Shown: positions 18,273 to 58,654 of the stretch, piece by piece
How the letters are laid out: each line of letters begins with the position of its first letter
How positions within the stretch are numbered: position 1 is the first letter of the stretch
Source of the DNA: Deltaproteobacteria bacterium
Lineage (GTDB): Bacteria > Desulfobacterota > Binatia > Binatales > Binataceae
DNA length: 64,000 nucleotides
Assembly (NCBI GenBank): GCA_021799495.1
Contig: JAJZAI010000002.1
Location: 7,157 to 71,156, forward strand
Reading direction: 5' to 3'
Program-made: the position numbers and the translations under genes
The notes under the pieces: model-generated
Seen by the model: the letters and a program-made list of their open reading frames with translations, nothing else
Databases searched by the model: none
Told to the model about the DNA's origin: nothing

Positions 18273-20093
18273 ATGGCCCGTATTTTTGGCATAGACCTCG
18301 GCACCACCAACAGCCTGATCGCCGTGATTGAAAACGGCGCGCCGCGAGTGATCGCCGATCCGGAAACCGGCCGCACGCTGCTGCCCTCGGTCGTCGCGAT
18401 CACGCCCGGCGGCGGCGTCGCCGTGGGCGACGCCGCGATCGCGCTCGAAGCCAATCCGAAGCGCGCGAGCGTCGTGATTCGTTCGGTCAAGCGCTACATG
18501 GGCCTCGGCGGCGGCGAGCTTGGCCCGGAAGAGCGCCGCCGTTACGAGTTCGCCGATCTTTCCGGACCGGTCGTCCGCTTCAAGGTCGGCGCGCGCACCT
18601 ACGCGCCGCCGCAAATCTCGGCCGAGATTTTGCGCGAGTTGAAGCGCCGCGCCGAAGCCGCGCTCGGCGGCGAGCTGGTCGAGCGGGTGGTCGTCACCGT
18701 GCCCGCCTATTTCAACGACGCTCAGCGCCAGGCCACCAAGGACGCAGGCCGCCTCGCCGGGCTTGAAGTCGTGCGGCTGGTCAACGAACCGACCGCCGCG
18801 TCGCTCGCCTACGGTCTGGAGCAACTGAACGACGGCTACGTCGCGGTTTACGATTTTGGCGGCGGCACATTCGATATCTCCATTCTCAATATCAAGGGCG
18901 GCGTCTTCGAGGTTATCGCGACCAACGGCGACACCCATCTGGGCGGCGACGATCTGGATCAGGCGATCGTGGCGGAACTCCTTGCCGGATTGCCGGAGGC
19001 GGCGCGCGCGGACCGCGAACTGTGGAACCGGGCGCGCGCGGCGGCCGAAGCGGCGAAACATCGGTTGAGCACGGCGGAAAGCGCGCAAATCAGGCTTGAG
19101 ACCGGCGCCGGCGCGCTTGAGCGAACGCTCCGCCGCGCGGATTTCGAGCGGCTCGCCGAGCCGATCGTGGAACGTTCGATCGAATGCTGCCGGCGCGCGC
19201 TGGCGGACGCGAAGCTCGCGCCCGCGGCGATCGACGCGGTGGTGCTGGTCGGCGGTTCGACCCGCTCGCCGATCGTGCGGCGGCGCGTGGCGGAAGTTTT
19301 CGGCCGCGATCCGTTCTGCACGATCGATCCGGACCAGGTGGTCGCGCTGGGCGCCGCCGTGCAGGCGGGCGTGCTGATGGGCGCCCGCAACGATTTGCTG
19401 CTGCTGGACGTGGCGCCCTTGTCGCTCGGAATCGAAACGATGGGCGGCTTGATGGAGCGGCTGATTCATCGCAATTCCACGATTCCGACCAGCGTGACCG
19501 AAAATTTCACCACCGCGGTCGACAACCAGACGCATGTTGACGTCCATGTGTTGCAGGGCGAGCGCGAGCTGGCGCGCGATTGCCGGAGCCTCGCGCGGTT
19601 CAAGCTCGGCCCGATCGAACCGGCGCCGGCCGGCCTGCCGCGTATCGAAGTCACTTTCCTTATCGATGCGAACGGAATACTGAATGTTACAGCGCGCGAT
19701 CAGCGCACCGGCCGCGAGCATTCGGTCGATGTGAAGCCGAGCTACGGGCTGACCGACGAAGAGATCGAGCGGATGCTCGAGGAGTCGATCGATCTCGGCG
19801 ATCAGGATCTCGAGGAGCGGCTGCTGATCGCGGCGCGCAACGACGCCGACCAGATTCTGGCCGCGCTCGCCAAACAATTGGGCGAGTACGGAAATTTGGC
19901 CGGCGCCGAGGAGCGGCGGCGGATGGCGGAAGCGGCGAAGCGCCTTGCGGCGGCGCGTTCCGGAACCGATCGCGAACTGATTTCCCGTCTGGTTGAAGAA
20001 CTCAACGAGGCCTCGACGCCGTTCGCCCATCGCATCATGGACGAGGCGATCGGCGCGGCGCTCAAGCGAAAATCAGTCGATGAAATTTCTTGA
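18273..20093 (+). CDS. hscA: Fe-S chaperone HscA (Hsp70 family)
   Basis: 606 aa with [15 protein letters not shown] and [12 protein letters not shown] (Hsp70 signatures). Confidence 0.93.
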
Positions 20094-20181
20094 CGAAATG
20101 CGGTGTGAAGGGTATATTATTGCGCCTTATCCCGGCGCAACCCCTCCACGCCGCTTCATTTGAAGGAAGGGTTTAGAAGTT

Positions 20182-20397
20182 ATGGGACTCAAATGGGACC
20201 AGGCGGAAGAACTTGCCGAGGTTCTGGCTGAGAATCATCCGGGACTCAACCCGCTGCAGGTGCGTTTCACCGATTTGCGCCAATGGGTGATCGATCTCGA
20301 TGAGTTCGGCGACGATCCGTCGGCCTCCAGCGAGGGCAAGCTCGAAGCGATTCAGATGGCATGGCACGAGCTGTACAAGGAAAATGGCGGAGAGTGA
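20182..20397 (+). CDS. iscX: Fe-S assembly protein IscX (YfhJ)
   Basis: 71 aa. MGLKW..VRFTDLRQWVIDLDEFGDDP closely parallels E. coli IscX as I remember it. Confidence 0.85.
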   Translation: MGLKWDQAEELAEVLAENHPGLNPLQVRFTDLRQWVIDLDEFGDDPSASSEGKLEAIQMAWHELYKENGGE

Positions 20398-20440: not shown

Positions 20441-21043
20441 GTGGAAGCGATGAGGGCGGAACAGGGAGCGAAGATGCAGGAAAAAGAGACTCTTGACGAG
20501 AGATTGCCGGGTCTGTTCGAACCCGACACCCTCTTGCCGATTCAGTACTTCGAGGCGATGCGCAAAAAGCATCTGCTCGAAGGCGAAAAGCGGCTCGTGT
20601 TGAGCGTGCTGGAGGATGCGGTCGAGTGCTTCATGAAGTGCATCGATTCGCCGACGAGCAAGGGCCAGCGTTTGTTTCGCGACGCCGACGAATGGATTTC
20701 GCTCGAGGACCGGCACTGGGTGTTTTCGTTCGATAATGTTTGCGACATGCTCGATATCAATCCCGAGTATCTGCGGCGCGGCTTGCAGCGCTGGAAAGAG
20801 CGCAAGCTGGCGGCGCTAGAGCGTGCGGCGCAGGCGCGCGCGGAGGCGTCGGCCATGGCTGAAAGCGCAGTTCCGGCAACGACCGTGGAAGCGGTAGCGC
20901 CGGTGATGGCGCAGCCGGCGCCGGTGGCGCCGAAAGTGGCGGCTACGCTGCCTGCGAAGAGCTCGAGCCATCGGCCGGAAAAGCACAAGACCGCCGCGGT
21001 CGCGCGTCCGGCGGCGCGTGGACTGCGCAAGGCGCAAGCCTGA
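20441..21043 (+). CDS. Hypothetical protein (structured N-terminal half, Ala/Pro-rich basic tail)
   Basis: 200-aa ORF 43 nt after iscX. A strong hairpin terminator follows it. No motif was recognised. Confidence 0.5.
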   Translation: MEAMRAEQGAKMQEKETLDERLPGLFEPDTLLPIQYFEAMRKKHLLEGEKRLVLSVLEDAVECFMKCIDSPTSKGQRLFRDADEWISLEDRHWVFSFDNVCDMLDINPEYLRRGLQRWKERKLAALERAAQARAEASAMAESAVPATTVEAVAPVMAQPAPVAPKVAATLPAKSSSHRPEKHKTAAVARPAARGLRKAQA

Positions 21044-21107
21044 AATCGCGGCTGGCGTCTGATTAAAGCTGCGCCGCCCGGACAGAAAAAAATAGCGTTG
21101 TGTGATC

Positions 21108-21135
21108 GAAAGGCGGCCTGTTCGGGCCGCCTTTC
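21108..21135 (+). terminator. Hairpin terminator after the isc-linked hypothetical gene
   Basis: gaaaggcggcc-tgttcg-ggccgcctttc forms an 11-bp stem. Only a weak T-tract follows. Confidence 0.55.
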
Positions 21136-21425
21136 ACGTTTGGCGGGAACTCGTTCGCGCTGAGTTTCGATGCGCTGGTCAGCGCGGCGGCCAGACGATT
21201 TGCGTCGTGTCCTGTTCCATTACGTCGTCCACGATCGCGCAAAATTTACATATCTATCGGCGCACAATCGCGCCCGAAGTTAAAAATCCAGTAAACTCGA
21301 GCGTTTTGGTTGATTCTAAAACCGGCATGCTTGATGCTGCCGCTAGGTGTCAGAGAACGCAGACCTGAAGTCGAAGTAAACGATTAAGGCTCAGGGTGCG
21401 TTGAACGGACAGGAGGTGTCCGGCG

Positions 21426-21860
21426 ATGCGCGGCAAACAAAAGATAATCGTGGCGGCGATACTCTCGATGGTTGTGGCCGTCGCGATCGCTGTCATGCCG
21501 ACCAGAGCGTCGGCGCAAGATTGGCATAATGGATGGGGCGAGCACGACGACGGATGGCGCGGCGGCCCAGGATGGCATGGCGGCGGTCCGCCGCCGTGGA
21601 GTCACGGGCGTGCCTGGGGCGGCGGTCCGGGCTGGCAGAACAATCAATGGGGTGACGATCGTGGCGGCGATGACGAAAACAGGAACGGCTACGGCAACGG
21701 GTACGGATGGAACAACGGCCCGTATGAAAACGCTCCGTACAATTACGGCGCTTACAACGGCAACTACGGCAACGGCTACAACCCGTACTTCGGCCAAAGC
21801 CCGGCAATGAATGCGATTGGATCGCTCGCGGGTCCGTTGCTCGGCCTGCCGATACCGTAA
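21426..21860 (+). CDS. Secreted Gly/Trp/Asn/Tyr-rich low-complexity protein (paralog 1)
   Basis: An AGGAGG SD lies at 21409..21414. The signal peptide is MRGKQKIIVAAILSMVVAVAIAVMPTRASA. The mature part carries 9 Trp and repeated GGPGW / GWGEHDDGW / NGYGNGY units. Confidence 0.7.
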   Translation: MRGKQKIIVAAILSMVVAVAIAVMPTRASAQDWHNGWGEHDDGWRGGPGWHGGGPPPWSHGRAWGGGPGWQNNQWGDDRGGDDENRNGYGNGYGWNNGPYENAPYNYGAYNGNYGNGYNPYFGQSPAMNAIGSLAGPLLGLPIP

Positions 21861-21925
21861 CGACGCCCGGCGCCGAGCATGGCGATCTGGCCGCTCAAAG
21901 CGCAAGAACAGGTTGAGTCATCATG

Positions 21926-21955
21926 GAGCGCCCCGCCAGCAATGGCGGGGCGCTC
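21926..21955 (+). terminator. Hairpin terminator after paralog 1
   Basis: gagcgccccgcc-agcaat-ggcggggcgctc forms a 12-bp perfect stem. Confidence 0.5.
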
Positions 21956-22111
21956 ACGCGATCGGTCGAACTTGATCGGCAATTTCGGTGTGCGAATCGG
22001 GTGGAGCGTGCGCGCGAAAACATCGATCAGACAGCGAGAACGAGCCTCTTGGCTGAAACGCCAGCTTGAAATCGACGTATTAATAGATGAGAGACATTGA
22101 GGGGAGTGAGC

Positions 22112-22510
22112 ATGAAATTATCGAGATTCATTTCGCGTAAGTCCGTGGTCGCAGCATTATTTTCCGTGATTCTGGCCGCCGGGATGACGGCCGCGCCGGC
22201 CAGCGCCTTTGCGCATGGCTGGGGGCATGGCGGATGGCATCACGGCTGGCATGGCGGACGCTGGGGCCACGGACGATGGGGAAATCGATGGCGCGGCGGG
22301 CGCGGCCGGTGGGGCTACGGACCGGGCGCCTATGGGCCTGCCGGCTACGGCCCGTGGGGATATGGCGGCGGATGGGATCGCGAAGGCGACGATCGTGGCG
22401 GCCCCGGCTGGTATGGCGGCGGATGGGGCGAGCATGAAGATGAAGGATGGGGCGGCGGTCCGGGATGGTTCGGCGGCCGCGGATGGGGTGGCGGCGGCGA
22501 CGATGATTGA
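22112..22510 (+). CDS. Secreted Gly/Trp/His-rich low-complexity protein (paralog 2)
   Basis: The ATG at 22112 follows GAGGGGAG; track ORF 22097..22510 uses an upstream TTG. The signal peptide is MKLSRFISRKSVVAALFSVILAAGMTAAPASAFA. The mature part carries about 14 Trp and HGWGHGGWHHGWHGG, and shares GWGEHEDEGWGGGPGW with paralog 1. Confidence 0.7.
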   Translation: MKLSRFISRKSVVAALFSVILAAGMTAAPASAFAHGWGHGGWHHGWHGGRWGHGRWGNRWRGGRGRWGYGPGAYGPAGYGPWGYGGGWDREGDDRGGPGWYGGGWGEHEDEGWGGGPGWFGGRGWGGGGDDD

Positions 22511-22562
22511 AATCGGTTCGGCGGCGTCCGCGGCATAGAGGCGAGAAAATCGCCGGGATAAC

Positions 22563-22599
22563 GAGCGTCCCGCCATGGCGGCGGGACGCTCTGCGTTTT
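22563..22599 (+). terminator. Hairpin terminator after paralog 2 (convergent with the LLM gene)
   Basis: gagcgtcccgcc-atggc-ggcgggacgctc followed by tgcgtTTTT. The stem sequence is nearly identical to the terminator after paralog 1. Confidence 0.6.
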
Positions 22600-22623
22600 G
22601 AGTTTATGGAATGAGCGTCAGGA

Positions 22624-23640
22624 TCAGGCGCTGGCCGGCCAGCTTGCCGCGAGGTTATCGATCGCGGCGAGGATGCGTTTGCGTTTTTCCGTCGGGTCTT
22701 TCGCGTAAGACGTGAATTGCAGCGCCGCCGCGGTGATTCCGGATCGCTCGTAATCGCGCAGCCGGCGCGCGATCTTAGCGGGCGAGCCGAGTACGTAAAT
22801 CGCCTCGACCATGTGGTCGGGAATCGTCGTCAGGGCTTTTTTCCGGTCGCCGGCGAGCCATGCGTCGAGCGCGGCGCGCGCCTCGGCTTCATAGCCGATT
22901 TCACGGAAGAATTTGTTGTACTGCGGCACCGTGACGTAAGCGGTCAGCTCGCGGCGCAGTTGCTCGCGCACGGCCTCTTCCTCGGCGTCGATCGCGACCA
23001 TTATCCGGCATGCGATGTCGATGTTGTCGGTCGTTCGGCCGGCGGCCCGCGCCCCTTCGTAAATATGCTCGCGCATCGGGCCAAAGGTTTCCGGCGTGAT
23101 GTAGTTGACGATGGCGCCGTCGCCGATTTCGCCCGCCGTCCGCAGCATCAGGGCGCCCTGCGCGCCGATATAGATCGGCGGCGGCGGATCGCTCGCCGCG
23201 CCGAGTCGGAAGCCGTTGATCTGCACGGTCTTGCCGGCGACCGACACTTTTTCTCCGGTGAAGCATCGCCGCAGCGCGTCAACCGTCTCCTTGAGCCGGG
23301 TGATCGGCATCTTGTACGGCACGCCCATCCATTGCTCGACGATCGTCGGAGTCGAGATGCCGAGACCGAGGATGAATCGCCCACCCGAAAGCCGCTGCAA
23401 GGAAGCGGCGGAAAGCGCGATCAGCGCGGCCGGCCGGGTGAAGACCGGCACGATCGCGGTTCCGAGCCGCATCCGCTCGCTCACCATCGCGGCCGCGGCG
23501 ATCGGAGTAATCGCGTCGCCCGCGAAAGTTTCGTACGACCACGCGTCTTCATAGCCGGCGCGCTCGGCATGGCGCACAAGTTCGGCGAAGTGCTGGTTCT
23601 GAAAGCCTTCGAGCGGAATCGTTATTCCAAGTCGCATCAT
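22624..23640 (-). CDS. LLM-class (luciferase-like, probably F420/flavin-dependent) oxidoreductase
   Basis: The real start is ATGATG at 23640 (MMRLGITIPLEG...). The 338-aa TIM-barrel LLM-like sequence includes GRFILGLGIS. The upstream 279 codons of track ORF 22624..24477 are an Arg-rich artefact overlapping the neighbouring gene. Confidence 0.78.
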   Translation of the reverse strand: MMRLGITIPLEGFQNQHFAELVRHAERAGYEDAWSYETFAGDAITPIAAAAMVSERMRLGTAIVPVFTRPAALIALSAASLQRLSGGRFILGLGISTPTIVEQWMGVPYKMPITRLKETVDALRRCFTGEKVSVAGKTVQINGFRLGAASDPPPPIYIGAQGALMLRTAGEIGDGAIVNYITPETFGPMREHIYEGARAAGRTTDNIDIACRIMVAIDAEEEAVREQLRRELTAYVTVPQYNKFFREIGYEAEARAALDAWLAGDRKKALTTIPDHMVEAIYVLGSPAKIARRLRDYERSGITAAALQFTSYAKDPTEKRKRILAAIDNLAASWPASA

Positions 23641-23720: not shown

Positions 23721-26588
23721 CTATCGCTCCCGCGGCTTCGCGTTGAGCGCCTCCGCCAGATGGAGCGGCTCGCGGCCGGGGCAAAACTGGCGGATTTGCG
23801 CGCGGCAGGCGAAACCGTCGGCGATGACGATCGCGTCTTCCGGCGCTTGACGGATGGCGGGAAGCAGCACACGCTCGCCGATTTTGCGCGAGATCGCGAA
23901 GCGGGCCTCGCCATAGCCGAAAGCGCCGGCCATCCCGCAGCATCCCGCGTCCGGCGCGCTGACTTCGAGGCCGGGCGCCTTGCGCAGCAGCGCGAGTTCC
24001 GTATCGAGTCCCGCGAGCGCCTGGCGATGGCAATGGCCCTGCACGATCGCGCGGCCGGCCGGCGCGGTCGGCACGAAGCCGGGCGCCTCGCGCATCAGGA
24101 ACTCGTCCAAAGTCATCGCCGCTTCCGCGACCGCGCGCGCCGCGCTCAGGCGCGGAAAAAGCGCGGGGGCCTCGTCCCGAAAAGTAAAAATGCAGCTTGG
24201 TTCGAGGCCGACTATTTTGACGCCGCCCGCCGCCAGCGGCGCCAGCCTGTTGATTGAATCGAGCATCCTGTGGCGGGCGAGATCGAGCCGGCCTTGATCG
24301 TAAAGCGGGCGTCCGCAGCAGACGTCGCCGCGCGGCAGCGTGACGCGGAAGCCCGCGCGCTCCAGAACCTCGGTCGCCGCGATCGCCACGCGCGGCTCGA
24401 AAAAATTGTTGAACGTATCCGGAAACAGCACGACCGCCGGCGCGTCCGGATTGACCGCGCGGCGCCGCGCGAACCATCGGCGGAAACTCGCCGGCGCGAG
24501 CCGCGGCAGCGCGCGGTCCGGATGGACGCCGAGGAGGGTTTTGGCGATTGAACCCGCCCCGCCGGAGAGCATCGCGTTGTAAAGCCGCGGCGCGACGGCG
24601 CCGATCCGCGCGAGGTCGTGAATCCGCCCGAAGATCCGCGCGGCGAGCGGCGGGCGATGCGTGCGATAGTAGTTAGCCATGAACTCGGCCTTGTACTTCG
24701 ACATATCGACCGACGCCGGGCATTCGGTTTTGCAGGCCTTGCAGGAGAGGCACAATTCGAGCGATTCGTAGAGCGCGTCGTCGGCGAAGCCGCCGGGCAG
24801 CACGCCGCCGGCGAGAGCGTCGAAGAGCAGCCGCGCGCGGCCGCGCGTCGAGTACGCCTCGTCGCGCGTCGCCATGTATGACGGACACATCGCGCCGGCG
24901 TCGGTCTTGCGGCATTTTCCAATCCCGACGCATTTGAGCGCGGCGCCCGCGAGCCCGCCCTCCGGCGAAAAATCGAAATAGGTGTTCACCGCGCGCGGCG
25001 CGTATCGCGGCCCGAGGCGCAGGTGCGAGTCGAGCGGATCGGGATCGACGATCACGCCGGGATTCATGCGATGGTCCGGGTCGAAGATGCGCTTGAAGTC
25101 GCGGAACGCGCCGATCAGCTCCGCGCCGTACATTTTGGGCAGCAACTCCGAGCGCGCCAGGCCGTCGCCGTGCTCGCCGGAGAGCGAACCGCCGAATTCC
25201 ACGACCAAATCGCCGATTTCCTCCATCGCCGCGCGAAACGTCGCGATACCCGCGCGCGTCGCCAGGTCGAAGTTGATCCGGCAATGGACGCATCCTTCGC
25301 CGAAGTGGCCGTAATAGGTGGCGGCGGTGAGCCCATGACCGTTGAGCAGCTTGACGAAGCGGCGCAGAAAATCGCCGAGCCGCGCCGGCGGCACGGCGCA
25401 ATCCTCGGCGCCCGGCCAGGTGCGCGGACGGCCGGGAACATAGGCGCCCGCGCCCAGCCCCGATTCGCGCAAGCGCCAGACCGCCAGTTGATCGGCGCGA
25501 TCGAACAGCGCCGCGACTCCCGTGCAGGCGCCAGTTTTGCGCGCCTCGGCGATCAGCGCATCGACGCGGACGCGCAGTTCGTCGTCGCATTCGGCGCCAA
25601 TCTCGACGAGCAGAAAGGCGCGGCCTTCGGGCAGAAGACGCACCGCGGCGACGCCCTTCGCCCGCGCGATATCCGGCAGATGATGATCGAAACCTTCGAG
25701 CGCCTGCGGCCGATGCGCGAGCATCCACGCCATCTGATCGGCCGCCAGATAAACGTCGGCGAAGCCGAGCGTCACCAGCGCAAGACGGCGCGGAATCGGC
25801 ACGAGCCGCACGACGGCCTGATGGAAAATCGCGAGCGTGCCTTCGGAGCCGACGGCCGCGCTGGCGAGATTGAAGCCGCGTTCGGGCAGCAGGTCGTCGA
25901 GGTTGTAGCCGGAGACCCGGCGCGGAATTTTCGGATAGCCGGCGCGAATCGCGTTGGCGTGGCGATCGGCGAGCGCGCGCAACGAATTGAAAATTCCGCC
26001 GGCGCGACCCCCGCTGGCAATCGCGGCGGCGATATCGCTCGCGCTCGCCGCGGCGCCGAGGCTCAGTTCCGTGCCGTCGTAGAGCATCGTTTCGAGCGCA
26101 ACGACGTTGTCGGCGGTTTTGCCGTGCGCGGCGGAATGGGCGCCGCAGGAGTTGTTGCCGATCATCCCGCCGATCGTGCAGCGGTCTTTGGTTGACGGAT
26201 CGGGCGCGAAGAACAGTCCGTGGCGTTCGGCGGCGGCGTTCAGATGCGACTGGACGACGCCGGGTTCGACGACCGCGACGCGGCGATCGGGGTCGATCGA
26301 GCGGATTTCCGTCATGTAGCGCGAAAAATCGATCATCAACGCGGTGTTGGCGCCCTGGCCGGCCAGCGACGTGCCGCCGCCGCGCGGCACGACCGGCAGA
26401 TCGTTCTCTCTCGCGATTTTAAGCGTCGCGGCGACGTCGGCGGCGCCGCGCGGAGCGATTACGCCGATCGGATCGCGCCGGTAGTTCGAGGCGTCGGTCG
26501 AGAAGATAACGCGCGCGGCCGCGTCGAAACGCACGTCGCCCCTGATCGTCCGCGCCAGTTCATCGCGGATTGCGGATTTCGATGCCAT
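23721..26588 (-). CDS. FAD-linked oxidase fused to Fe-S/CCG domains (YdiJ / GlcD-GlcF-fusion type)
   Basis: 955 aa with an N-terminal FAD-binding PCMH-type domain (VVPRGGGTSLAGQ), a ferredoxin-like cluster motif (CLSCKACKTECP) and a C-terminal Cys-rich (CCG-like) region. Confidence 0.85.
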   Translation of the reverse strand: MASKSAIRDELARTIRGDVRFDAAARVIFSTDASNYRRDPIGVIAPRGAADVAATLKIARENDLPVVPRGGGTSLAGQGANTALMIDFSRYMTEIRSIDPDRRVAVVEPGVVQSHLNAAAERHGLFFAPDPSTKDRCTIGGMIGNNSCGAHSAAHGKTADNVVALETMLYDGTELSLGAAASASDIAAAIASGGRAGGIFNSLRALADRHANAIRAGYPKIPRRVSGYNLDDLLPERGFNLASAAVGSEGTLAIFHQAVVRLVPIPRRLALVTLGFADVYLAADQMAWMLAHRPQALEGFDHHLPDIARAKGVAAVRLLPEGRAFLLVEIGAECDDELRVRVDALIAEARKTGACTGVAALFDRADQLAVWRLRESGLGAGAYVPGRPRTWPGAEDCAVPPARLGDFLRRFVKLLNGHGLTAATYYGHFGEGCVHCRINFDLATRAGIATFRAAMEEIGDLVVEFGGSLSGEHGDGLARSELLPKMYGAELIGAFRDFKRIFDPDHRMNPGVIVDPDPLDSHLRLGPRYAPRAVNTYFDFSPEGGLAGAALKCVGIGKCRKTDAGAMCPSYMATRDEAYSTRGRARLLFDALAGGVLPGGFADDALYESLELCLSCKACKTECPASVDMSKYKAEFMANYYRTHRPPLAARIFGRIHDLARIGAVAPRLYNAMLSGGAGSIAKTLLGVHPDRALPRLAPASFRRWFARRRAVNPDAPAVVLFPDTFNNFFEPRVAIAATEVLERAGFRVTLPRGDVCCGRPLYDQGRLDLARHRMLDSINRLAPLAAGGVKIVGLEPSCIFTFRDEAPALFPRLSAARAVAEAAMTLDEFLMREAPGFVPTAPAGRAIVQGHCHRQALAGLDTELALLRKAPGLEVSAPDAGCCGMAGAFGYGEARFAISRKIGERVLLPAIRQAPEDAIVIADGFACRAQIRQFCPGREPLHLAEALNAKPRER

Positions 26589-57148: not shown

Positions 57149-58654
57149 GTGACCGTTCGCACGCGTTACGCGCCGAGTCCGACCGGCGCGCTGCATATCG
57201 GCAACGTCCGCTCCGGGCTGTTCGCCTATCTTTTCGCGCGCCATAACCGCGGCGCATTCGTCCTGCGGATCGACGATACCGATCGCGAACGCTCGACCAG
57301 TGAATCGCTCGACGAGATTCTGGAGAGCCTCGGATGGCTCGGCGTCGATTGGGACGAAGGGCCGCCCGACGCGCGCTACTTCCAGTCGAATCGGTTCGAT
57401 CGTTATCGCGAAGGCGCGCTGAAATTGTTGCGTGAGGGCAAGGCCTATCGATGCGACTGCACGGCGGCCGATCTCGACGCGATGCGCAAGCAGGCCGAAC
57501 GGGAGCATCGCAAACCCGGCTACGACGGCCGCTGCCGCGATAAGCGGACGGCGGCGGAACTGGCGAATACGGAATTGCCCGACAAGCGCGCCGGCCGCGA
57601 TTACACAATCCGCTTCCGCTCTCCGCGCGAGGGCGTGACGGTGGTTGACGACCTGATCAAAGGACGCGCGGCGTTCGACAACCGGGAACTCGACGACCTG
57701 ATTATTTTCCGTTCCGACGGCGTGCCGACCTACAATTTCGCAACCGTGCTCGACGACGCCGATTTCGGCATGACGCATATCGTGCGCGGCGACGACCATC
57801 TGCCGAATACGCCCCGCCAGATGCAGATTTTTTACGCGCTGGGATTGCAGCCGCCCGCGTATGCGCATCTGCCGATGGTGATGGGGCCGGACGGGCAGAA
57901 GCTCTCCAAGCGCCACGGCGCGACTTCCGTTTTCGCCTATCGTGACCTTGGCTATTTTCCCGAAGCGCTGCTCAACTACTTGGTGCGTCTGGGATGGTCG
58001 CACGGGGATCAGGAAATCTTTTCGCGCGCCGAGATGATCGAGTTTTTCGACTTCGCGGAGTGCGGAAAATCCGCCGGCATTTTCAACGCGGAAAAGCTGC
58101 TCTGGCTGAATTTCCATTACATGAAGACGCTGCCGATCGAGCGTCTGGTCGAGGATGTCAAGCCGTTTATCGCGCGGCGCGGATGGAAAATTCCGGGCGA
58201 CGATGCGTGGCTCGCGAAGATGATCGCGACGCTGCGCGAGCGCGCCAAAACGCTCGTCGAGCTGGTCGATTTCGCGAGCTTCTATCTCAACGACGAAATC
58301 GCGATCGATCCAAAAGCCGCGGCGAAGTTTCTAACGCCCGAAATCGCTCCGAAGCTGGCCGCGCTGGCCGACGAGATCAAGTCGCTTCCCGCTACATCGA
58401 GAGTCGAGGCCTCGATTGAGGCCGGCTTTGCCCGCATCTCCGCCGAAATAGTCGAGGCGTCGATTCAGGACGGCTTTGCCCGCGTGCTCGAACGCTTCGC
58501 CATGAAGCTTGGAGAGCTCGCTCAGCCGGTTCGGGTCGCGCTGACGGGCGGTACGGTCAGCCCCGGAATTTATGAAGTCATCGCCGTGCTCGGCCGCGAT
58601 CGTACCGTGCGTCGGTTACGCGCCGCCGCGAGCGCCTGCTCCGGCGCGTCGTGA
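57149..58654 (+). CDS. gltX: Glutamate--tRNA ligase
   Basis: The GTG at 57149 (VTVRTRYAPSPTGALHIGN) is preferred over the TTG at 57131. It has HIGN (HIGH) and KLSKR (KMSKS) motifs. The C-terminal domain contains a 48-nt tandem duplication. Confidence 0.9.
   Translation: MTVRTRYAPSPTGALHIGNVRSGLFAYLFARHNRGAFVLRIDDTDRERSTSESLDEILESLGWLGVDWDEGPPDARYFQSNRFDRYREGALKLLREGKAYRCDCTAADLDAMRKQAEREHRKPGYDGRCRDKRTAAELANTELPDKRAGRDYTIRFRSPREGVTVVDDLIKGRAAFDNRELDDLIIFRSDGVPTYNFATVLDDADFGMTHIVRGDDHLPNTPRQMQIFYALGLQPPAYAHLPMVMGPDGQKLSKRHGATSVFAYRDLGYFPEALLNYLVRLGWSHGDQEIFSRAEMIEFFDFAECGKSAGIFNAEKLLWLNFHYMKTLPIERLVEDVKPFIARRGWKIPGDDAWLAKMIATLRERAKTLVELVDFASFYLNDEIAIDPKAAAKFLTPEIAPKLAALADEIKSLPATSRVEASIEAGFARISAEIVEASIQDGFARVLERFAMKLGELAQPVRVALTGGTVSPGIYEVIAVLGRDRTVRRLRAAASACSGAS
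58403..58498 (+). repeat. 48-nt tandem duplication inside gltX
   Basis: Unit 1 is 58403..58450 and unit 2 is 58451..58498. The first 33 nt of the two units differ at 3 positions. They encode VEASIEAGFARISAEI and VEASIQDGFARVLERF. Confidence 0.8.

Follow-up and report, generated by a model that had tools for sequence, protein, structure and literature searches.

Two neighbouring genes, here called P1 and P2, lie on the forward strand of a 64,000-nucleotide stretch of DNA (the window) from the MAG of an uncultured soil bacterium of the Binataceae (G000; assembly 3.43 Mb, 98% complete). Upstream of them are iscS-U-A-hscB-A-iscX and then a 200-aa gene of no assigned function. The coordinates of both genes, their protein parts, and the surrounding regulatory features are given in Table 1.

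Table 1. Genes, protein segments, and nucleic acid elements of the P1/P2 locus, numbered along the window.
Feature	Position	Strand	Remarks
Sigma-54-type -24/-12 element GGCATGCTTGATGCT	21324..21338	+	GG at 21324-5, GC at 21336-7; 102 nt upstream of P1 start codon
Promoter-proximal block, P1 side, GAGAAC-N16-AGTA	21353..21378	+	Weak ECF-like match; direct repeat shared with P2 side
P1 SD, AGGAGG	21411..21416	+	Read from sequence; kept in orthologues
P1 CDS	21426..21860	+	144 aa; open reading frame at these positions
P1 signal peptide	21426-21515	+	Part of P1 CDS
P1 Gly/Trp/His/Asp module	21516-21677	+
P1 Gly/Tyr/Asn module	21678-21794	+
P1 hydrophobic tail, G-x3-G-x3-G (IGSLAGPLLG)	21795-21857	+
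Hairpin 1, GAGCGCCCCGCCA-gcaa-TGGCGGGGCGCTC	21926..21955	+	13-bp stem; no T-run
TGAAAC-N16-CGTA, candidate ECF-sigma-like promoter of P2	22054..22079	+	From conservation
P2 SD, GAGGGGAG	22099..22106	+	Read from sequence
P2 CDS	22112..22510	+	132 aa; open reading frame at these positions
P2 signal peptide	22112-22213	+	Cleavage after ASA32 or AFA34
Hairpin 2, GAGCGTCCCGCC-atggc-GGCGGGACGCTC, then TGCGTTTTGA	22563..22601 (stem-loop 22563-22591)	+	12-bp stem; intrinsic-terminator-like

The reading frame of each gene is the only one open in all orthologues, no orthologue carries a frameshift or stop, and all indels are in frame; with dS reaching 1.4, dN/dS is 0.11-0.30 (0.16-0.30 for P1 and 0.11-0.21 for P2), and both signal peptides and SD sites are conserved. 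The sole open frame, the in-frame indels, and the dN/dS values together indicate that P1 and P2 are real protein-coding genes. Two antisense ORFs (21384-21905 and 22157-22576, minus strand) were rejected as genes because stops interrupt both in orthologues.

Both genes had previously been credited with an SD and a signal peptide, and this is borne out: the SDs are AGGAGG and GAGGGGAG, and by rule-based reading the signal peptides are of the Sec type, ending in ASA in P1 and in ASA or AFA in P2. That of P1 comprises MRGKQK, 19 hydrophobic residues, and TRASA ahead of QD, whereas that of P2 comprises MKLSRFISRK, a hydrophobic stretch, and ASA, FA, and HG in succession, with the two candidate cleavage points at the junctions. 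The Kyte-Doolittle maxima over 11 residues are 3.15 and 2.92, respectively, and the AlphaFold2 model of P2 has a helix at 4-32. Neither a lipobox nor a twin-arginine motif was found in the signal peptide of P1 or P2. The two products are, on these predictions, small Sec-exported proteins with mature parts that are of low complexity and largely disordered. Among the 37,343 open frames of at least 50 aa in the genome, they have the densest Trp within a Gly-rich 60-aa stretch.

Mature P1 (114 residues) contains 30 G, 9 W, and 4 H, His thereby making up 3.5%; mature P2 (98 residues) contains 43 G, 14 W, and 7 H, so that the Trp counts of 9 and about 14 in the earlier note hold. Orthologues of P1 are 70-99% identical, and in one genome (G007) the Gly/Tyr/Asn module is enlarged by GYGYGN repeats. 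The tail reads G132-x3-G136-x3-G140, and its motif GxxxGPxxG is kept across distant relatives.

P2 has neither the Gly/Tyr/Asn module nor the hydrophobic tail. Its N-terminal half is rich in Gly, Trp, His, and Arg (net +6), and its C-terminal half is acidic (net -8), ending in GGGGDDD; an AlphaFold2 model gives the mature part a pLDDT of about 40 and no secondary structure, in keeping with predicted disorder. Tandem repeats of 12-nt and 18-nt period (TRF) correspond to units of 4 and 6 residues. An in-frame TTG at 22097 lies ahead of the annotated start. Orthologues of P2, 54-93% identical, occur in four other genomes, in each of which a P1-type gene adjoins. Across the five proteins His falls from 7 to 3, while Trp (13-17, one every 4-7 residues) and Gly (about 45%) stay, together with mixed Arg and Asp/Glu and the GDDD end. 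The split of charge, +6 to +7 in the N-terminal half and -6 to -8 in the C-terminal half, is found in the P2 of G000, G007, and G012; G011 has two negative halves (-2 and -3), and G002 has +5 followed by -4, its Arg alternating with Glu/Asp.

The proposed paralogy of the two genes, with duplication of gene and hairpin together, is upheld. Smith-Waterman alignment of mature P1 and P2 alone gives only z = 2.1 over composition-matched shuffles, but the signal peptides reach z = 4.9 and the N-terminal modules as much as 6.2, this last for the pair of the sister genome G002. Profile comparison by hhalign of the P2 set with the P1 set gives 98.9% probability (E 3e-17), and with the core-bearing family described below 98.2% (E 6e-14), the match spanning the signal peptide and first mature residues. 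BLASTP of P1 against P2 yields no alignment at E <= 100, owing to composition filtering. At the DNA level, a 36-nt repeat is 78% identical and a 21-nt repeat 95%. The shared GWGEH block to which attention had been drawn is also real, although its two copies, GWGEHDDGWRGGPGW in P1 and GWGEHEDEGWGGGPGW in P2, differ in length by one residue.

The twin hairpins point the same way. The GAGCGYCCCGCC...GGCGGGRCGCTC hairpin occurs at only two sites in the 3.43-Mb assembly, after P1 and after P2, and a genome-wide REP-like element was therefore rejected as its source. The 56-nt stretches around hairpins 1 and 2 fold at -37.2 kcal/mol (z -5.8) and -30.4 kcal/mol (z -4.8), respectively. Sequence comparison thus identifies P1 and P2 as paralogues by tandem duplication, the duplicated unit having included the downstream hairpin and the promoter-proximal block. 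The suggestion that the genes form separate cassettes with matching terminators is half right: the hairpins match, but terminator prediction calls only hairpin 2 terminator-like (T-run TGCGTTTTGA), leaving hairpin 1 uncalled. The latter is followed by ACGCGATCGG and hence is not a canonical intrinsic terminator, so that P2 may also be reached by transcripts coming from P1. Orthologues keep a hairpin here, which in G002 has a T-run.

Relatives of the pair carry a core, W-x-C-D-x-x-G-H-H-C-H-W (in fuller form NGxGM(I/V)NxRNPxLxWxCDxxGHHCHWA), with invariant W, C, D, G, H, H, C, W, and A columns in alignment A3; examples are P0004 (GCA_021780225.1) and P0005 (GCA_027403445.1). In the AlphaFold2 model of a core-containing relative this core is a C-terminal beta-hairpin (pLDDT at least 90; strands 89-93 and 100-104), probably stapled by a disulfide. 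It is missing from P2 and from P1, where the loss appears as a gap in alignment A1 at about nt 21735, and a six-frame search of the pair's own 98%-complete genome found no match to it. P1 and P2 are thus core-less derivatives, tied to the family by other features. Both begin as its members do, with a homologous signal peptide and then a mature start of the form A-(H/E)-(D/G)-W-x-H (AHDW/HGWGH). P1 aligns with the family throughout alignment A1 apart from the core gap, and it also has the family's Gly/Tyr/Asn module, tail, and sigma-54 element, none of which is present in P2.

Position on the chromosome links the pair to the long-form genes as well. Searching with the window neighbours by tblastn (30+ loci, with gene tables) recovered the order hscA-iscX-unk200-[gene]-LLM(-)-FAD/FeS oxidase(-), and the P1/P2 pair occupies the place of the gene; outgroup genomes have one gene there and the sub-clade with this genome has two. 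P2-type genes are confined to five closely related genomes. Their spread was taken from whole-genome searches because the protein-database search with P2 is made insensitive by HMMER bias correction: the single sequence returned 0 matches at E <= 1e-3, and the profile returned P0048 and a non-significant Stellaceae protein among the matches listed. Family matches occur in 11 of 12 genomes of the genus, in 35 of 165 Binataceae genomes, and in 2 of 301 genomes of a phylum-wide sample, one of them G000 itself; 74 clusters were found among 1.84 billion representative proteins. In G000 and G007, P1 and P2 are the sole family members remaining. Pfam and NCBIfam gave nothing meaningful for P1, P2, and relatives, nor did the PDB, either by sequence (no match) or by fold (best E 4.3). 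The earlier statement that no described family has this make-up therefore stands, and the check on homologue spread that it called for indicates that the family is lineage-restricted and undescribed.

These comparisons suggest the following history. The ancestor would have been one gene between the isc operon (with the 200-aa gene) and a luciferase-like oxidoreductase gene, encoding a signal peptide, a His/Asp/Trp/Gly module, a Gly/Tyr/Asn module enclosing the core, and a G-x3-G-x3-G hydrophobic tail. In the sub-clade of this genome the gene would have been duplicated in tandem with its downstream hairpin; P2 would have retained only the signal peptide and an enlarged Gly-Trp module, and P1 would afterwards have lost the core, retaining the Gly/Tyr/Asn module and tail. 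We hold the anatomy, evolution, and export of P1 and P2 as described here with high confidence.

A search for a sigma-54-type promoter, recommended in the earlier note, was fruitful: a conserved -24/-12-type element precedes P1 and almost every other family gene, and is the most conserved block in an alignment of nine orthologous upstream regions. Of 18 family genes, unlinked paralogues included, 13 have the GGCAYGCTTGATGC element at a distance of 83-125 nt upstream, and a looser pattern raises the number to 16; across 13 genomes of the genus 14 of 15 exact matches are just upstream of a family gene, against 0 matches for the reversed-pattern control. In a single genome 14 loose matches were observed against about 16 expected (our own base-composition estimate); the motif is thus not above expectation there, and what argues for it is its conservation from gene to gene and from genome to genome. 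Sigma-54 control of P1 is probable on this evidence. As the 4-nt spacer, CTTG, is strongly conserved, another factor could bind the element, whether in addition to sigma-54 or in its place. If transcription of P1, as of almost every other family gene, starts at a sigma-54 promoter, it would depend on a specific signal and on an enhancer-binding protein encoded elsewhere; the genome encodes rpoN and about 11 enhancer-binding proteins, none of which adjoins P1 or P2.

P2 appears to be controlled differently. No GG-N10-GC element of the family type lies upstream of it, and a sigma-54 promoter was rejected since the nearest GG...GC pair is spaced one base too widely and lacks conservation. Upstream of all five P2 orthologues is (T/G)(G/T)AAC-N16-CGTA at identical spacing, from which we infer an ECF-type promoter; the motif was found 13 times in the genome against roughly 7 expected (again our own base-composition estimate), which is not above chance genome-wide, and the case for this promoter therefore also rests on conservation. 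At the position of the promoter-proximal block, the P1-orthologue of G002 has GGAAC-N16-CGTA. Transcription of P2 may thus proceed by read-through of the U-less hairpin 1, from its own ECF-type promoter, or by both. A k-mer search upstream of all paralogues revealed no common activator motif, a TTGGTA-N8-TACCAA-like palindrome is common only to the syntenic long-form genes, and Rfam gave no match above chance on 20900-22800.

What the two proteins do is a more tentative matter, and the best explanation as a whole, its standing set by its weakest link, falls somewhat short of an even chance. The functional part of it, which is drawn by analogy with ZraP and is somewhat doubtful, holds that P1 and P2 may be periplasmic polypeptides, induced by stress, whose role is to bind or buffer divalent metals (Cu, Zn, Ni), to shield the envelope, or both; the ligands would be imidazoles of His, carboxylates of Asp/Glu, and backbone amides of Gly, with Trp as second-shell partner. 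Counted in its favour are His tracts in relatives (HHHHHH, DHDHDHHHH), the Cys2His3 composition of the core, and the surroundings of two paralogues, one lying between an OEP-MFP-RND efflux operon and a two-component system and another adjoining a DegP-like protease and a MacB-type exporter; paralogue neighbourhoods are heterogeneous. Counted against it, the best metal-site candidate of the family, the Cys/His core, is missing from P1 and P2, and in P2 it is Trp and Gly, not His, that are conserved. The low His content of mature P1 (3.5%) and the absence of HGGGW from both proteins weigh on the same side. No metal transporter, sensor, or resistance gene adjoins the pair in the window.

That same conservation of Trp and Gly fits a role in forming material with no specificity for metal, which we regard as unlikely but worth serious weight. 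Here, Trp/Tyr and Arg would serve as stickers and Gly as spacers in a periplasmic or surface condensate, gel, amyloid-like layer, or adhesive, with the G-x3-G-x3-G tail holding P1 at the membrane or in oligomers. The regular Trp spacing, the Gly content, and the mixed charges kept by P2 orthologues as His is lost, the growth of the P1 module by GYGYGN repeats in G007, the in-frame tandem-repeat mode of evolution, the predicted disorder of the mature part, and the tail motif kept in distant relatives all agree with this. Self-assembly, however, is a prediction from composition, no curli- or Fap-like secretion, assembly, or nucleator genes lie near the pair, and the proteins are short and single-copy; moreover, a signal-dependent sigma-54 promoter fits a conditional response better than a constitutive structural part. 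A reading that joins stickers to metal is bolder and rather improbable: a private Binataceae regulon, governed by sigma-54 and one enhancer-binding protein, would consist of exported proteins built on a new Cys2/His3 beta-hairpin metal site, and P1 and P2 would have swapped this folded site for a disordered Gly-Trp/His/Arg/Asp sticker-spacer sequence that captures metal or condenses on it. To our knowledge, the examples of such a metal-capturing sticker-spacer principle are so far mostly eukaryotic, among them the prion octarepeats and the His/Gly-rich proteins of jaws and beaks.

It is very unlikely that P1 and P2 are secreted competition or antimicrobial peptides, in which the Trp/Arg N-terminal half of P2 would be membrane-active in the manner of (RW)n and the acidic half a neutralising pro-piece. 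The family is small, secreted, multi-copy, and fast-evolving, its core hairpin is probably disulfide-stapled, and a cationic half with RWGHGRWGNRWRGGRGRWG does precede an anionic one in the P2 of three genomes; the charge split, however, is not conserved, as G011 and G002 show. Furthermore, the locus has no immunity gene, dedicated exporter, or processing protease, the signal peptides are of the Sec type with no double-glycine leader, and the fixed chromosomal site after the isc operon is unlike mobile bacteriocin loci. That the pair are decaying relics of duplication and core loss, exported or unexpressed and with no role of their own, would suit the absence of the sole confidently structured, invariant family part and the confinement of P2-type genes to five close genomes, but is highly improbable given the dN/dS values, the intact orthologous frames, the conserved signal peptides, SD sites, and GDDD end, and the retention of both genes as the last family members of G000 and G007.

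If the metal or envelope-stress function is true, the pair belongs to an uncharacterised family of periplasmic proteins whose expression is conditional, in a phylum that is found worldwide and has never been cultured; the Binatota are known only from genomes (PMC8262859). The family would also offer a compact new Cys/His motif, modelled with high confidence, and a very specific promoter as a handle on the cognate enhancer-binding protein and its signal. The series from full protein to core-less P1 to Gly-Trp-only P2 would further portray a folded secreted protein turning low-complexity under purifying selection. Should the function not be metal-related, P1 and P2 would be a typical lineage-specific orphan pair, and the practical value would lie in a corrected annotation.

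Among known systems, the resemblance to the prion octarepeat put forward in the earlier note proves thin. HGGGW, reportedly the model peptide of the octarepeat Cu(II) site used by Marino and colleagues in 2007 (cited in PMC13653836), occurs 0 times in P1, P2, and all P2 orthologues. The likeness consists of HGGW and HGGR in P2 and HGGGP in P1, in a Gly-rich, disordered setting; HGGW is present once in each of four of the five P2 orthologues (none in G011), with 1-2 HGG per protein. The P2 repeats, however, are of 4 and 6 residues, His is not conserved, there is no homology, and P1 and P2 are bacterial and predicted to be periplasmic. Small envelope proteins with Gly-zippers include the Pfam Gly-zipper_Omp, Gly-zipper_YMGG, and Rick_17kDa_Anti types, for example OsmB. 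P1 resembles these in being small and exported and in its tail, IGSLAGPLLG, but has no Pfam match, carries a single short motif at its extreme C-terminus, is no lipoprotein, and is otherwise a Trp/Tyr/Asn/Gly low-complexity protein.

The termini of ZraP, a member of the CpxP/Spy/ZraP LTXXQ family from E. coli and Salmonella, are Gly/His-rich. ZraP is a sigma-54/ZraR-dependent periplasmic zinc-binding chaperone of the envelope-stress response (PMC4987338), and it reportedly binds Cu(II) more tightly than Zn(II) (PMC8836040, citing Petit-Hartlein 2015). P1, P2, and 13 relatives differ from it in having no Pfam match at E <= 1, PF07813 and PF13801 (LTXXQ, Metal_resist) included; ZraP is a folded helical oligomer, whereas P2 is predicted to be disordered, and no ZraSR-like genes adjoin P1 or P2. 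What the pair would have in common with ZraP is small size and Sec-dependent export, to which P1 adds a candidate sigma-54 promoter.

P1 and P2 are protein-coding genes kept by purifying selection. The window lies on contig C76 of a genome of 89 contigs that is 98% complete and has a G+C content of 63.7%, a composition that makes long open frames cheap, and hence coding was tested directly. Orthologues of the two genes adjoin each other in four other genomes of the genus (G007, G012, G002, and G011); in the annotated frame, pairwise dN/dS is 0.11–0.30 at dS 0.24–1.43, all length differences are multiples of three (as in the (GYGYGN)n expansion in G007 P1), and no other frame is stop-free in all orthologues. 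Together, these properties identify the genes as coding. The observation in the earlier note is correct, and both open reading frames lie where it had placed them. Long antisense frames at P1 and P2 were rejected, being broken in some orthologues.

Features of the P1–P2 region (window coordinates)
Feature	Position	Strand	Remark
Sigma-54-type element	21324–21338	+	102 nt 5′ of P1 ATG
P1 SD AGGAGG	9 nt 5′ of ATG	+	Read from sequence
P1 CDS	21426–21860	+	144 aa
ECF-like candidate (T/G)(G/T)AAC-N16-CGTA	22054–22079	+	Spacing identical in all five P2 orthologues
P2 SD GAGGGGAG	Upstream of P2 start	+	Read from sequence
P2 CDS	22112–22510	+	132 aa

Both proteins are predicted to be exported: each N terminus is a textbook Sec signal, with a basic n-region, about 19 hydrophobic residues, and ASA/AFA (cleavage sites assigned by rule), and neither contains a lipobox or twin-arginine motif. 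A TTG in frame with P2 occurs at 22097. Mature P1 (114 residues) contains 30 Gly, 9 Trp, 9 Tyr, 15 Asn, and 4 His, and mature P2 (98 residues) contains 43 Gly, 14 Trp, 10 Arg, and 7 His; no other of the assembly's 37,343 open frames of at least 50 aa packs Trp as densely into a Gly-rich stretch. The proteins have a block in common (GWGEHDDGWRGGPGW in P1, GWGEHEDEGWGGGPGW in P2), underlain by DNA repeats of 78% and 95% identity, and P2 is composed of 4- and 6-residue tandem units. AlphaFold2, applied to P2, places residues 4–32 in a helix and models P2 as wholly disordered; disorder is predicted for its mature part.

Composition by itself yields alignments, and therefore the test of paralogy needed care. 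Smith–Waterman alignment of mature P1 with mature P2 reached only z = 2.1 against shuffles; the signal peptides reached z = 4.9, and the N-terminal modules up to 6.2, in the less diverged G002 pair. When the profile of the P2 orthologues was compared with that of the P1-type set, the probability was 98%–99% (E 1e-14 to 1e-17), the match spanning the signal peptide and the first 10–20 mature residues. A promoter-proximal block is present in duplicate (GAGAAC-N16-AGTA 5′ of P1, TGAAAC-N16-CGTA 5′ of P2), and downstream of either gene lies a hairpin of very high stability, at −37.2 kcal/mol (z −5.8) for the 56 nt surrounding hairpin 1 and −30.4 kcal/mol (z −4.8) for those surrounding hairpin 2. 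A single position distinguishes the two stems, and the 3.43-Mb assembly holds no further copies of the sequence. With block and hairpin both doubled, the idea that a whole cassette was duplicated holds. The matching terminators of the earlier note stand as near-identical stems, but only hairpin 2 carries a T-run and qualifies as a terminator by score, hairpin 1 being followed by ACGCGATCGG. Since hairpin 1 is without a U-tract, P2 could possibly also be transcribed by read-through from the P1 promoter.

P1 and P2 belong to a lineage-specific family, as derived members. The related loci come from Candidatus Binataceae or 'Deltaproteobacteria bacterium' MAGs of soil and peat (SPRUCE, Microflora Danica, SMAG, BP bins). 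NCBI assigns Binataceae to the candidate phylum Binatota, known solely from genomes (PMC8262859). Synteny is strict: iscS-iscU-iscA-hscB-hscA-iscX is followed by a 200-aa unknown gene and the P1/P2 locus, after which the opposite strand carries genes for a luciferase-like oxidoreductase and then a 955-aa FAD/Fe-S oxidase. More distant genomes (loci L025–L029 and L031) have one gene of 180–220 aa at the locus, and the sub-clade of the window's genome (G000), G007, G012, G002, and G011 has two. Family alignments A1 and A3 resolve a single ancestral protein into a signal peptide; a His/Asp/Trp/Gly module; a Gly/Tyr/Asn module around the core NGxGM(I/V)NxRNPxLxWxCDxxGHHCHWA; and a C-terminal tail, ...LGSLxGPLLGxP. 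The core positions W, C, D, G, H, H, C, W, and A do not vary across the 18 sequences, and AlphaFold2, run on the 18-sequence alignment, predicts the core to be a beta-hairpin (strands 89–93 and 100–104, pLDDT ≥90) with one Cys per strand, the remainder of the protein having pLDDT <50. Short paralogues of 95–145 aa, dispersed and numbering up to six per genome, stop directly after the core. About 34 residues including the core are missing from P1 of the window's genome, as they are from G007, P0002, and P0003; P2 lacks everything past its first module, its C terminus being GGGDDD, and the core has no six-frame match anywhere in the genome.

Within the isc cluster (window 18273–20397), hscA runs straight into iscX with no intervening ferredoxin gene, as in all related loci examined. 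The 200-aa gene (20441–21043), which has no Pfam match, keeps its position between iscX and P1 in all related genomes at 65%–90% identity. At least two paralogues of it are encoded elsewhere in this genome, on contigs C52 (minus strand, motif at 57277) and C53 (plus strand, motif at 24549), all with the motif L..VLEDA..CF; a loose sigma-54-type element lies 5′ of each paralogue (GGCATGGGAAATGCT, GGCACGTTCAATGCA).

The family is an orphan, low-complexity one from an uncultured lineage and lies outside any described family, as the earlier note had supposed: P1, P2, the long forms, and ten remote relatives have no match in Pfam or NCBIfam, and the PDB has none by sequence or by fold. Among 1.84 billion representative proteins, the family profile matches only 74 clusters at E ≤ 1e-3, of which 26 reach ≤ 1e-10. 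In whole-genome searches, matches came from 11 of 12 genus members, 35 of 165 genomes of Binataceae (many of these matches being weak and confined to the N-terminal part), and 2 of 301 genomes in a phylum-wide sample (GTDB definition), one being the window's own; P2-type genes were found only in the five sub-clade genomes. Remote relatives mix the same modules with others, including a C-D-E-D-G-D-D-C-R motif and a helical segment, and the superfamily is therefore modular. Six of these from the representative library (P0037, P0038, P0040, P0046, P0062, and P0069; 189–262 aa, no Pfam match) retain the signal peptide, His/Asp/Trp start, and GxxxGPLLG tail, the core being replaced by C-D-E-D-G-D-D-C-(R/H) and a helical segment of about 50 residues (…RQxxYxxLxxMxxRxDxxAAxR…). 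The secreted protein P0082 ('hypothetical protein VJR70_03810', 120 aa, from an alphaproteobacterial Stellaceae bacterium MAG) has true WHGGGWHGGGW repeats together with a glycine-zipper segment and a tail rich in Tyr; its compositional style resembles that of the family, to which it is not significantly related (E 0.4), and thus such proteins may have emerged repeatedly among soil bacteria.

The earlier note had proposed looking for a sigma-54-type promoter, and a putative one is conserved upstream of P1 and most family genes. Alignment of nine orthologous long-form upstream regions revealed one sharply conserved block, CGGCA(C/T)GCTTGATGC(T/C), amid diverged DNA. The sigma-54 −24/−12 consensus is TGGCACG-N4-TTGCW, which the block fits with exact GG/GC spacing. 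The element lies 83–125 nt upstream in 13 of 18 family genes (16 with a slightly looser pattern), among them short paralogues whose neighbourhoods are unrelated. In 13 genomes of the genus, the exact 14-mer has 15 matches against none for the reversed control, 14 of them directly upstream of a family gene. In a single genome, the loose motif is not above the base-composition estimate (14 found, about 16 expected), and so the argument for sigma-54 rests on conservation and specificity. The window's genome encodes RpoN and about 11 enhancer-binding proteins, none adjacent to the pair. We infer, with fair confidence, that transcription of P1 is conditional and activator-dependent.

The sole exact 14-mer not upstream of a family gene (L057:1501–1514; G006:C10:74550–74563, in another genome of the genus) lies just 5′ of a kdpF-like small ORF (...MGSIMAVGLTAYLVYAMLRPEKF), which presumably precedes a kdp operon. 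About one random match is expected from the base estimate, and hence this one may be chance, or else may reflect a shared regulator.

No sigma-54-type element lies upstream of P2, where the ECF-like candidate is found; AAC/CGT patterns are typical of ECF sigma factors. In a crude scan, similar motifs lay 5′ of several other predicted secreted proteins of the genome. An 'HP...NP'-repeat secreted family (e.g., NPQYLASHPNFANFLKAHPY) occurs on contigs C41 (plus strand, start 21729, about 179 aa) and C62 (minus strand, near 97478) and at L041:2289–2684. The G000 copies have a TGAAAC-N16/17-CGT(A/C) motif upstream, like that of P2; one ends in a Trp/His-rich tail, HHWHNRNWW...GHHWHKRQWWMHHRR...GPGGPGWGH, and in other genomes, a 131-aa member directly follows a short core-family gene.

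These findings go beyond the earlier note in adding a family, a predicted Cys/His hairpin that is new, and a sigma-54-type promoter shared across the family, and also fall short of it, as the prion-like Cu site that it had put forward is not really there. A metal or envelope-stress role for P1 and P2 is possible, and we hold it tentatively. Counted in its favour are the His tracts (HHHHHH, DHDHDHHHH) and Cys2His3 core of relatives, a paralogue adjoining a DegP-like protease and MacB-type exporter, and a short core-family gene (L044:1354–9510, GCA_963795945.1) flanked on one side by a divergent OEP-MFP-RND efflux operon and on the other by a histidine kinase/OmpR-type regulator pair, a layout reminiscent of cus/czc loci. 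Counted against a metal or envelope-stress role are the loss of the core from P1 and P2, the absence of HGGGW from both, and His that is sparse in P1 and unconserved in P2; the P1/P2 locus holds no metal-related genes, and other paralogues neighbour MFS transporters, luciferase-like oxidoreductases, catalase, and squalene-hopene cyclase, all unrelated to metal. What is conserved in P2 (evenly spaced Trp, a Gly matrix, and mixed charges) fits a self-associating, material-forming 'sticker-spacer' polypeptide at least as well, a nature that we consider rather unlikely for the pair. An antimicrobial role and functionless decay are both highly improbable.

A further point for the metal or envelope-stress role comes from ZraP, to our knowledge the sole small periplasmic protein with a sigma-54 promoter to have been studied in depth. 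ZraP is a Zn/Cu-binding chaperone in the envelope-stress response (PMC4987338; PMC8836040). It is the nearest working analogy to P1 and P2, which match it in neither sequence nor fold.
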